12,885 bases of DNA from Nanobdellota archaeon (lineage in GTDB: Archaea; Nanobdellota; Nanobdellia; SCGC-AAA011-G17; JACPNG01), in NCBI GenBank assembly GCA_038046345.1, contig JBBSWJ010000015.1, forward strand, positions 1-12,885, written 5' to 3'. Numbering within the stretch: the stretch's first letter is position 1; each line of letters starts with the position of its first letter. Below are positions 10,670-12,885 of this stretch, in pieces. Under the pieces are notes generated by a model. That model was not told the DNA's origin. It worked only from the letters and a program-made list of their open reading frames with translations, and searched no databases. Both the position numbers and the translations under genes were made by a program.

Positions 10670-10996
10670 ATGGTAGACAAGCACAAACTTCAATATTGGG
10701 ATCATAGAAATAAAGTACTCTCAATAAACTGGGCACACAGCAGAGATTATGTCGCTGGGGATTGCCGAGTTAGAGCTATTCCGGGGGATATGAATGTAGA
10801 TGACCATAATAGAATACAATTCCAGAGACAAACTTATTCTGCTCCTATGACTCTTGAAGAAGCAAGAGAATATATAGCACAGAATTCTGAGATGTTAGGC
10901 AAAGTTCATGATTGTGTTGGTTTAACTCTAGAAGATGTTTGCATAGTAGCAGACTTTACTAAACCAATTGAAGTTAGAAATATTGGAGAGAGATAA
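10670..10996 (+). CDS. Hypothetical protein, 108 aa, no family recognised
   Basis: Open frame with protein-like composition; ATG at leaderless spacing from a TATA box; followed by a hairpin. Confidence 0.7.
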   Translation: MVDKHKLQYWDHRNKVLSINWAHSRDYVAGDCRVRAIPGDMNVDDHNRIQFQRQTYSAPMTLEEAREYIAQNSEMLGKVHDCVGLTLEDVCIVADFTKPIEVRNIGER

Positions 10997-11009: not shown

Positions 11010-11068
11010 CTATATATTTTCGAGCAACGCCATTGTGAGTCTATTGTCCTAGCCCGCCCGCTTATTGA

Positions 11069-11153
11069 AACTAACGTATGCGATTATCTGAAGTTTCACG
11101 AAGTGAAATTTGGGGATTTTTCGCAGGAAAATTCCAGATAATCGCTGTTAGGC
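11069..11153. mobile_element. Integron attC-like recombination site (AACTAAC ... GTTAGGC) with a three-way-junction fold
   Basis: CTAAC(11071-75)/GTTAG(11147-51); perfect 11-bp stem GCGATTATCTG(11080-90)/CAGATAATCGC(11135-45); two inner hairpins with GAA and GCA triloops. GTTAGGC matches the GTTRRRY core. Spacer lengths are non-canonical. Confidence 0.65.
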
Positions 11154-11231
11154 GTCCCGAACGAAGTGAGAGCCTGCAAGGCGTGGTCGGAGCAATTTTG
11201 AAAAAATTGCGGAGAAGTCGGTTTCGGGCGC
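11146..11231. repeat. Left inverted-repeat arm of the purB unit (TGTTAGGCGT ... TCGGTTTCGGGCGC) with internal GNA-triloop hairpins
   Basis: 11146-11155 is the exact reverse complement of 12681-12690. 11218-11231 is the exact reverse complement of 12665-12678. Confidence 0.85.
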
Positions 11232-11238
11232 GGAACAT

Positions 11239-11251
11239 AAATATTTATAAA
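11239..11251 (+). promoter_or_regulatory. purB promoter (AAATA-TTTATAAA), leaderless transcript predicted
   Basis: TTTATAAA at 11244-11251 starts 30 nt before ATG 11274. The same 13-mer AAATATTTATAAA occurs at 10634-10646. No SD motif. Confidence 0.7.
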
Positions 11252-11273
11252 ATTAAGAGCAATTCCTGTTTAT

Positions 11274-12665
11274 ATGGATAAATTAGAAGCAATTAGTCCG
11301 ATTGATGGGAGATATAGAAGACATACAGAACCATTAGCAGATATTTTTAGCGAAAAAAGTTTAATTAGATATAGAATAAAAGTTGAGGTGGAGTATTTGT
11401 TATTTCTATCTGAACATCCTCAAATTGGAACTAGAAAATTTTCTGGTGAGGAGAAAGATTTAATCAGAAGATTATCTGATGTTTCCACAGAAGATGCTGA
11501 CGTTGTTAAAGCAATTGAAGTTAATGGTTATGGAAATATTAAAGCAACAAACCATGATGTTAAAGCAGTAGAACATTTTATGAAAGAGAAATTAAGAGGA
11601 ACTTCGCTTGAAGATTCATTAGAATGGATTCACTTTGCTTTAACTTCTGAAGATGTCAATAATCTTACTTATGGCTTAATGCTTTCTGACGGCGTTGAAA
11701 AAGTAGTCTTGCCGAGTATTGAAGAATTATATGAAACAATTGAAGGATTGGCTCAACAATATAAAGATGTTCCAATGCTGGCAAGAACTCATGGACAACC
11801 AGCATCACCAACAACTTTCGGAAAAGAGTTTAAGGTTTTTGCTTCAAGACTGAGACGACAGTTAGATCAATTAGGAACTTATGAAATTCTTGTTAAGTTA
11901 AATGGAGCTACCGGAAATTATAATGCCCATCAAATTGCTTATTCTGAAGTAGATTGGGTAAGGTTTACGAGAGATTTTGTTGAAAGACTTAATGATGGAA
12001 GAAAAATGCGACTAAAGCCTAATTTAGTAACAACACAAATAGAGTCTCATGATACTTATGCAGAATTATTCGACAATTTACGGAGATTAAATACTATCCT
12101 TATTAGCTTTGACCAAGATATGTGGAGATATGTTAGCGATGATTGGATCAAGCAAAAACCTGTTGAAGGGGAAGTTGGTTCTTCAACAATGCCGCATAAG
12201 GTAAACCCAATAGATTTTGAGAATAGTGAAGGGAATTTAGGACTGGCAAATGCTCTATTTGGCCATTTTGCAACAAAATTGCCAATATCGAGACTCCAGA
12301 GAGATTTATCTGATTCTACGGTTGAAAGAAATTTTGGTGTGGCTTTAGGACACAGCATTATCGGATATAAATCTGCACAAAAAGGATTAAGCAAAATCGC
12401 TGTAAATGAGCAGAAAGTTGTTGAGGAATTGGAAAATCATCCAGAAGTAATATCCGAAGCAATTCAGACAGTTCTCAGAAGAGAAGGAGCAGTAATGCCC
12501 TATGAACAATTAAAAGAATTAACCAGAGGAAGAAAGCCAACAATGGATGATCTCAGAACATTTATTGATGAATTGGATGTTTCCGATACAGTTAAAGAAG
12601 AATTAAGGCAGATCTCTCCAACAAACTATACAGGAATTGCTCGTCTTCTAGTAGAAACTCAATAG
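11274..12665 (+). CDS. purB: Adenylosuccinate lyase, E. coli/proteobacterial-type subfamily
   Basis: AISPIDGRY, TNHDVKAVE, IHFALTSED, MLARTHGQPASPTT, signature SSTMPHKVNPIDFENSEGN, SRLQRDLSDSTV, PYEQLKELTRG. Confidence 0.97.
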   Translation: MDKLEAISPIDGRYRRHTEPLADIFSEKSLIRYRIKVEVEYLLFLSEHPQIGTRKFSGEEKDLIRRLSDVSTEDADVVKAIEVNGYGNIKATNHDVKAVEHFMKEKLRGTSLEDSLEWIHFALTSEDVNNLTYGLMLSDGVEKVVLPSIEELYETIEGLAQQYKDVPMLARTHGQPASPTTFGKEFKVFASRLRRQLDQLGTYEILVKLNGATGNYNAHQIAYSEVDWVRFTRDFVERLNDGRKMRLKPNLVTTQIESHDTYAELFDNLRRLNTILISFDQDMWRYVSDDWIKQKPVEGEVGSSTMPHKVNPIDFENSEGNLGLANALFGHFATKLPISRLQRDLSDSTVERNFGVALGHSIIGYKSAQKGLSKIAVNEQKVVEELENHPEVISEAIQTVLRREGAVMPYEQLKELTRGRKPTMDDLRTFIDELDVSDTVKEELRQISPTNYTGIARLLVETQ

Positions 12666-12690
12666 CGCCCGAAACCGATTACGCCTAACA
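12665..12690. repeat. Right inverted-repeat arm of the purB unit (GCGCCCGAAACCGA-TT-ACGCCTAACA)
   Basis: Starts on the last base of the purB TAG. Exact reverse complement of two blocks of the left arm, without the roughly 60 nt that separates them there. Confidence 0.85.
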
Positions 12691-12747
12691 ACTATTAAAC
12701 GAATATTTATCTCGCTTAATATCAATATTTGGGATAAAAAGCGAGAT
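12683..12747 (+). mobile_element. Second, degenerate or truncated attC-like site
   Basis: GCCTAAC fits RYYYAAC. ATTAAACG(12694-701)/CGCTTAAT(12713-20) pair 7 of 8. Alternative stem ATCTCGCTT(12709-17)/AAGCGAGAT(12739-47). No intact GTTRRRY right end. Confidence 0.45.
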
Positions 12748-12836: not shown

Positions 12837-12860
12837 ATCAGGTGACATATGTCACCAGAT
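12837..12860. repeat. Palindrome GGTGACATATGTCACC (perfect 16 bp, 12841-12856) with imperfect extension
   Basis: Self-complementary 16-mer; ATC/GAT pair beyond an A-A mismatch. It also contains GGTGA and an ATG at 12849 whose frame runs off the window. Confidence 0.6.
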
Positions 12861-12885
12861 AATATTCCTTGCAAGATCATGAAAT

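Follow-up and report, generated by a model that had tools for sequence, protein, structure and literature searches.

The purB locus and its folded element

The window, that is, the whole 12,885-bp contig (C15) analysed here, comes from an archaeal genome of 821 kb that is 97% complete and has a G+C content of roughly 33%, and it carries split RNA polymerase genes. These archaeal polymerase genes are adjoined on the minus strand (167-2083) by a full-length bacterial-type RelA/SpoT gene encoding HD, synthetase, TGS and ACT domains. A 118-nt tRNA gene at 9414-9531, likewise on the minus strand, was matched by Rfam and missed by ARAGORN; its anticodon region holds 51 extra nucleotides, presumably an intron. 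The site under study occupies a 277-bp gap between the gene for a 108-aa protein (10670-10996), for which no Pfam family was found, and purB (11274-12665).

The original prediction described an 85-bp imperfect palindrome at 11069-11153, bounded by AACTAAC and GTTAGGC, and read it as an attC-like integron site. The sequence is as described. An outer pairing (11071-11075 with 11147-11151) is followed by an internal loop of GTAT opposite T and by a perfect 11-bp inner stem (11080-11090 with 11135-11145), which closes a three-way junction whose two arms are capped by GAA (11091-11111) and GCA (11114-11134). The coordinates correctly enclose this hairpin and are too narrow for the conserved element as a whole, of which the hairpin is the 5′ part and which extends in the 3′ direction to about 11231. 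The features of the region, all on the plus strand, are as follows.

11064-11075, plus strand: left box, or left arm, ending in TAA-C (the inverse-core side of the predicted attC site), recognised from relatives; part of the upstream unit
11069-11153, plus strand: fold-back hairpin with three-way junction (folding z -5.96; covariation in 19/34 pairs; model R2, 94.9 bits; match in relative G024:C27)
11134-11157, plus strand: core-like junction of TAA, 6 nt and TTA, a layout conserved in 32 related sites
11154-11187, plus strand: small three-way junction, called the module below (model R1, 66 bits; covariation)
11192-11217, plus strand: variable GAA-capped hairpin (11192-11210) and conserved tail GGAGAAG, recognised by eye in relatives with the same tail type
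11218-11231, plus strand: arm B, a unit-specific inverted repeat upstream of the purB TATA-like stretch, with an exact 14-nt reverse complement at 12665-12678
11237-12665, plus strand: cargo, comprising a TATA-like stretch (about 11237-11253) and purB (11274-12665; Pfam Lyase_1 plus ASL_C)
12665-12704, plus strand: right end of the purB unit, comprising arm B′ (12665-12678), left arm (12681-12688), 6-nt spacer (12689-12694) and next right arm (12695-12704); inverted repeats I2 and I5

The hairpin fold is real, under selection and specific to the plus strand. Folded as single-stranded DNA, the plus strand reaches -18.6 kcal/mol against a shuffle mean of -6.3 kcal/mol, with none of 200 shuffles as good, and the minus strand reaches -15.0 kcal/mol (z -5.1). 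The arms contain G.T wobbles, one in the GAA arm and two in the GCA arm, that are present on the plus strand only, the conserved ones becoming A.C mismatches on the bottom strand. Across six homologues, 89% of cells pair and both sides have changed in 19 of the 34 pairs, which none of 500 shuffles equalled; one invariant G.U is common to all six, and the loop asymmetry (ATC or GTAT opposite T) is seen again in relatives. In a blast search against 60 relatives, a contig from another family of the same order (G024:C27) proved 96% identical to the window element over 107 nt. The earlier reading had noted an attC-like pattern on the minus strand and left the orientation open; because the hairpin fold covaries and R2 scores the window copy far higher in silico on the plus strand than on the minus strand (94.9 versus 32.1 bits), the orientation can be assigned to the plus strand.

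Many further blast matches are centred on the 45 nt that lie 3′ of the hairpin, and across the matches a common plan recurs, in which a variable-size hairpin bounded by ..TAAC and GTTA.. is followed by the small three-way junction, then by another variable hairpin and a tail that is of either of two types. The module consists of an outer stem, a 2-bp hairpin that carries a GAA loop and has GA on either side, and a 4-bp hairpin whose loop is invariably GCA. In 10 sequences, 96% of cells pair and five of the ten pairs are altered on both sides; in 42 distinct sequences, aligned by fitting to R1 and thus biased in its favour, pairing stands at 91.6%, with compensatory changes in nine of ten pairs, many G.U pairs and none of 500 shuffles as good. 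Two readings of this junction as a known RNA motif were set aside: a hammerhead-like small junction, the core nucleotides of which misfit by eye, and a K-turn, the pairing of which clashes with the covarying GCA hairpin. The minimum-energy DNA fold also offers arm B an alternative partner at the start of the module (11152-11164 with 11219-11231), a pairing that competes with the covarying small junction.

Comparison with relatives extends the element on its 5′ side as well. In G011:C31, from the window's own family, the identical 11-12 nt precede the site, with a 6-nt spacer in place of the large hairpin, and the flanks of the boxes separated by these 6 nt are identical to those of the window. 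Left arms of the ATTG..TATAA type are common in related sites, and the boxes of relatives mostly read ..TATAAC and GTTA... An alignment of the junctions of the 32 sites conserves the layout ..TAA-N3-CTG-TTA.., the arms within one junction being weakly palindromic and matching each other near the spacer only. On the 5′ side of the reported long hairpin the spacer is 9 nt, not 6, and since long-hairpin junctions keep no 6-nt spacer there, the core reading fits the short sites better than the reported one.

Unit boundaries, rows and neighbouring recombinases

The downstream end of purB mirrors the element upstream of it. Arm B′, the reverse complement of arm B, begins on the last base of the purB stop codon, and the ten bases at 11146-11155, taken from the core box of the original prediction, recur inverted at 12681-12690. 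We propose that a unit has complementary ends because each is one half of a single palindromic or folded site. Only a half-site stands at the right end of purB, and the window contains one full hairpin. In the closest relative of purB (G010:C23, 83% identical), the right flank is near-identical up to the TAA box at 12688, with a sharp drop beyond, and on the left side the likeness begins only at the TATA-like stretch, the promoter region and gene being conserved. To judge from this alignment, the comparison places a unit boundary at the position predicted for the right side. Of 240 genomes of the order, only 14 have a homologue of purB, with surroundings that vary, and the gene looks like an acquired accessory gene.

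The same plan, with wholly different arm sequences, surrounds an FcoT gene in G011:C31 and a gene for a 122-aa protein in G057:C38. In all three units examined (purB, the FcoT gene and the 122-aa gene), unit-specific inverted repeats flank a TATA-like stretch and a gene, and the two arms of one unit are complementary across the gene at 8-10 positions; since the FcoT and 122-aa units share the plan and not the arm sequences, the arms are unit-specific and covarying. The purB inverted repeats are flanked by no target-site duplication, and for this reason, together with the unit-specificity of the repeats, a terminal-inverted-repeat transposon was rejected. For the upstream 108-aa unit, no recognisable left end was found in the window, nor any partner for the GC-rich stretch at 11052-11061.

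A blast search of the element against its own genome returned the window copy only; the structure models then found others, so that the site, the status of which the original prediction had made to depend partly on its being more than a single copy, recurs. A second R2 copy lies at C33:148-290 on a 1.35-kb contig and is followed by a gene for a 165-aa protein, and an R1 module copy at C19:76497-76537 is situated 50 nt from the end of that contig. A weak variant of the site, missed by R1 and recovered by profile search and by eye (E 0.88), stands at the end of C5. The copy number is thus about four in the window's genome, against 1-13 in relatives, and the placement of copies at contig ends suggests that a row has been broken up in assembly.

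Among 61 related genomes, R1 matches in 20 and R2 in 13. In these related small archaeal genomes the sites form same-strand rows, often 0.5-2 kb apart, between unrelated accessory genes; four hairpins stand at positions 202, 770, 2694 and 3874 of G024:C27, four sites followed by an Xer gene on G001:C21, two followed by an Xer gene on G023:C3, and 13 copies are spread across the G059 genome. The cargo beside the sites includes a HigB-like toxin, PIN plus RHH, Fic, an APH kinase, an LD-carboxypeptidase, an FcoT thioesterase, a peroxiredoxin, a nucleoside phosphorylase, PLD and purB. There is also mosaicism: G024 and G011 share one right arm and module without any difference, G127 has them in near-identical form, and the cargo that follows differs. 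On both sides of the sites the genes run in either direction (11 to 11 upstream, 9 to 17 downstream), which speaks against a role of the element as leader, trailer or terminator of any one gene. A purine or ZTP-type riboswitch for purB was rejected, as the element also precedes unrelated or opposite-strand genes. A conserved upstream gene, such as one for a small transposase, was likewise considered and rejected: four upstream proteins are unlike by eye, two of them having different Pfam matches (FcoT and HigB-like) and two having none.

A 14-mer of the module, with up to one mismatch, is present in 69 of the 240 genomes of the order, partly in other contexts. Full modules, found as exact 17-mer matches and rescored with R1, occur in records labelled Woesearchaeota, Pacearchaeota, Nanoarchaeota and Nanobdellota, and also in three bacterial records labelled CPR; the records in which an identical relative of the element occurs bear the label Candidatus Woesearchaeota. 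Complete hairpin-plus-module sites are present in the CPR-labelled records L170 (Falkowbacteria), L123 (Patescibacteria) and L176 (Staskawiczbacteria). The nearest relative of the window element, with the same GTAT/T loop and tail type, belongs to L123, a Patescibacteria single-cell assembly, and in L170 the site shares one 128-kb contig with a bacterial ribosomal protein L20 gene. Viral contigs yielded one exact 17-mer match.

A search for a recombinase, which the original prediction had called for with IntI in mind, found an enzyme of another kind. The sole full tyrosine recombinase of the window's genome (C20:12096-12923) is of XerA type, scoring 263 bits against the XerA model (NCBIfam cut-off 220) and 199 and 137 bits against integron-integrase models with cut-offs of 265 and 435, respectively. 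Its alignment skips the IntI-specific region, as do those of four row-adjacent recombinases of relatives. Each of the five enzymes tested has the archaeal XerA model as its best match, and three exceed the cut-off of that model; the integron-integrase cut-offs are reached by none, and neither the window's genome nor the four array-adjacent recombinases yielded an integron integrase. About 100 bp upstream of xerA (C20, approximately 11966-11992, in the window's genome, G000) lies a dif-like perfect palindrome with 10-bp arms and a 6-bp spacer, the right arm of which agrees with the right arm of the sites at 9 of 10 positions in several relatives and at 7 of 10 in the window copy. The palindrome is itself preceded by a partial left-arm copy joined to a GTTAGC-type box.

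In the window's genome no intact recombinase adjoins any copy of the site; what remains of a second Xer-type gene, a C-terminal stretch of 55 aa with 40% identity to XerA, adjoins the weak variant at the end of C5. In relatives, at least 14 site matches in eight genomes, among them G001, G023 (two contigs), G036, G046, G047, G057 and G059, fall within about 3.5 kb of an Xer-type gene, where chance would give about one such case by a rough estimate from about two Xer-type genes per 0.8 Mb. At least two Xer-type genes are present in about 23 of the 61 relatives, so that the acting enzyme cannot simply be equated with the housekeeping XerA, and a dedicated paralogue is possible. Tandem ORF-less units of about 111 bp that contain the module motif were also observed 0.5 kb upstream of an Xer-type gene (locus L045, G023:C8:11937-13078), in a stretch that consists partly of N.

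A probable Xer-linked cassette boundary and its alternatives

What the data show directly is the fold, the family to which it belongs, the arrangement in rows, the limits of the units and, in relatives, the proximity to Xer genes. Building on this, we consider it probable that the hairpin is a boundary or recombination site between two units of a Xer-linked system of gene cassettes, analogous to integrons, in Woesearchaeota-type (DPANN) archaea, with purB as one of the cassettes. Each unit would begin with a right arm (TTA), continue with the module and its variable hairpin, arm B, the TATA-like stretch and gene, and arm B′, and end with a left arm (TAA), after which a long fold-back hairpin, such as the reported one, would be optional. 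The purB unit would then span approximately 11148-12688, and the reported hairpin would be the end of the preceding unit, pairing with the first bases of the purB unit. An XerA-type tyrosine recombinase may exchange strands within the 6-nt TAA/TTA interval that mimics dif, the crossover probably falling between G11147 and T11148 (G|TTA). The covarying stems and GNA triloops point to the folded plus single strand as the putative substrate that is recognised. Given the TAA-N6-TTA layout and the dif-like right arms, the attC-like boxes are equally readable as inner ends of Xer-type arms, with the same predicted cut (G|TT).

It is possible but unlikely that the element is instead a structured noncoding RNA transcribed from the plus strand, a small RNA or cis element with hairpin and junction as its domains, which merely rides on mobile DNA. 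Such an RNA would suit the strand-specific fold, with its wide gap between R2 scores on the two strands (94.9 versus 32.1 bits), as well as the invariant G.U of the hairpin and the many G.U pairs of the module; the terminal GC-rich stretch of several relatives leads into a T-run, and the peripheral hairpins differ in size, as they do in many RNAs. However, Rfam 15 gave no match at the gathering score nor at E values up to 10, and the SRP RNA and RNase P RNA genes are located on other contigs of the genome. In G011 just 21 nt lie between the upstream stop codon and the site, too few to hold a promoter, and a leader or trailer of a given gene is at odds with the mixed orientation of the flanking genes. 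The element further falls where homology breaks off and where unit-specific inverted repeats lie, and nearly all of its loops are C-G-closed GNA triloops, a hallmark of stable DNA mini-hairpins that is unusual in RNA. A selfish or structural palindrome with no role in moving genes, whether REP/BIME-like, a MITE or an IS200/IS605-type end served by a Y1 transposase, seems to us improbable. The site is indeed a short, noncoding palindrome in several copies, contigs break at or near these copies, the 111-bp tandem units of G023:C8 lack ORFs, and one Y1 transposase gene is present in the window's genome (C19:31916-32263), 44 kb from the nearest copy. Yet the copy number is low, the copies cluster with accessory and Xer genes, and no Y1 gene was found in G057 (97% complete, 10 module sites), in G047 (100% complete) or in G001, while elsewhere Y1 is on another contig. 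Inverted repeats that vary from unit to unit are also unlike transposase-binding ends, and those of purB come without a target-site duplication.

A true integron attC that folds on its bottom strand and is served by an IntI encoded elsewhere or acting in trans (CALIN) is very improbable. The attC-like reading of the original prediction holds in part: GTTAGGC fits GTTRRRY fully and AACTAAC fits RYYYAAC at 6 of 7 positions, the order of R box, loop, L box and variable tip is present, with terminal inverted boxes, an asymmetric loop, a covarying stem and a branched tip, and the site lies at a gene boundary and belongs to a family that forms rows. Integrase-less attC clusters have moreover been published for Nanoarchaeota (PMC9668308). 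An integron proper is disfavoured by the tyrosine recombinases, since the sole full one of this genome and the four beside rows are XerA-like and fail the integron-integrase models, by the preference of the fold for the top strand, by a conserved, structured module after GTTAGGC of a kind that attC sites lack, by genes in either orientation and by the TATA-like stretch that each of the three units examined has of its own. The supplementary tables of the same paper, which give only nine attC sequences and primers, contain no motif of this family. The further suggestion that the site might be a variant class with a recombinase of its own agrees with the rows, several of which adjoin tyrosine recombinase genes.

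Relation to known systems and wider meaning

The cassette reading places the site between two known systems. Recombinogenic attC sites fold on the bottom strand, which is marked by extrahelical bases, and integron cassettes are mostly co-oriented and promoterless. As in attC, the present sites are conserved in structure rather than in sequence and combine ..AAC and GTT.. boxes with an asymmetric loop, a covarying stem and a variable tip; as in integron arrays, they stand in rows between small, unrelated accessory genes, and as in integron cassettes, the first bases past G|TT are part of the following unit, whose far end is complementary to them. Unlike in integrons, the adjoining recombinases are XerA-type enzymes without the IntI insert, the fold is on the top strand, the core is followed by a conserved three-way-junction module and a second, unit-specific inverted repeat, the genes run in both directions, and each of the three units examined has its own TATA-like stretch. 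Many sites, again unlike attC, have no long hairpin and resemble plain double-stranded core sites. With respect to the integron criterion of at least two sites within 4 kb, relatives have rows, and the window has one full site and one half-site, the other copies being on other contigs. Archaeal integrons and integrase-less attC clusters (CALINs) have been described (Ghaly et al., 2022; PMC9668308), as has the archaeal XerA/dif system (Cortez et al., 2010; PMC2958812).

A Xer/dif-type core has two inverted arms of about 11 bp on either side of a 6-bp spacer. The likeness to Xer/dif resides in the core of TAA, 6 nt and TTA, in arms that resemble the genome's own dif-like palindrome, and in the XerA-type genes beside rows in relatives. 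Units bracketed by inverted half-sites also recall dif modules, which are known from Acinetobacter plasmids, and the folded single-stranded attP of the Vibrio phage CTX offers an earlier example of Xer enzymes that use such a substrate. In contrast to Xer/dif, the junction arms here are only weakly palindromic and are accompanied by long covarying hairpins and a structured module, and in contrast to the Xer systems described so far, many single-gene units form rows beside the recombinase gene.

A broader idea, which we put forward tentatively and regard as possible rather than probable, is that of an undescribed cassette system common to DPANN archaea and at least some CPR bacteria, in which a XerA- or Xer-type enzyme, not IntI, would move self-promoted single-gene units at cores that mimic dif, with the three-way-junction modules serving for recognition or strand choice. 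Our search of the literature available to us found no paper describing Xer-linked cassette rows. If the cassette reading holds, genome-reduced, host-dependent archaea would acquire and shuffle metabolic and defence genes by an integron-like device built on Xer/dif, the machinery of chromosome resolution, and not on an integron integrase. This would account for the patchy gene complement of DPANN genomes (purB itself being found in 14 of 240 of the order) and would constitute a second, independent solution to structure-specific cassette recombination. As the same sites occur in CPR-labelled bacteria, the system may mark a route of gene flow between two domains. Short oligonucleotides and the 275-aa recombinase offer themselves as testable substrates.

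One further structure was noted close to the end of the contig. At 12837-12867, roughly 20 nt short of the contig end, a perfect 12-bp palindrome is followed by a CCAGATAA box resembling the one in the reported hairpin, and the two together may be the start of a further site.
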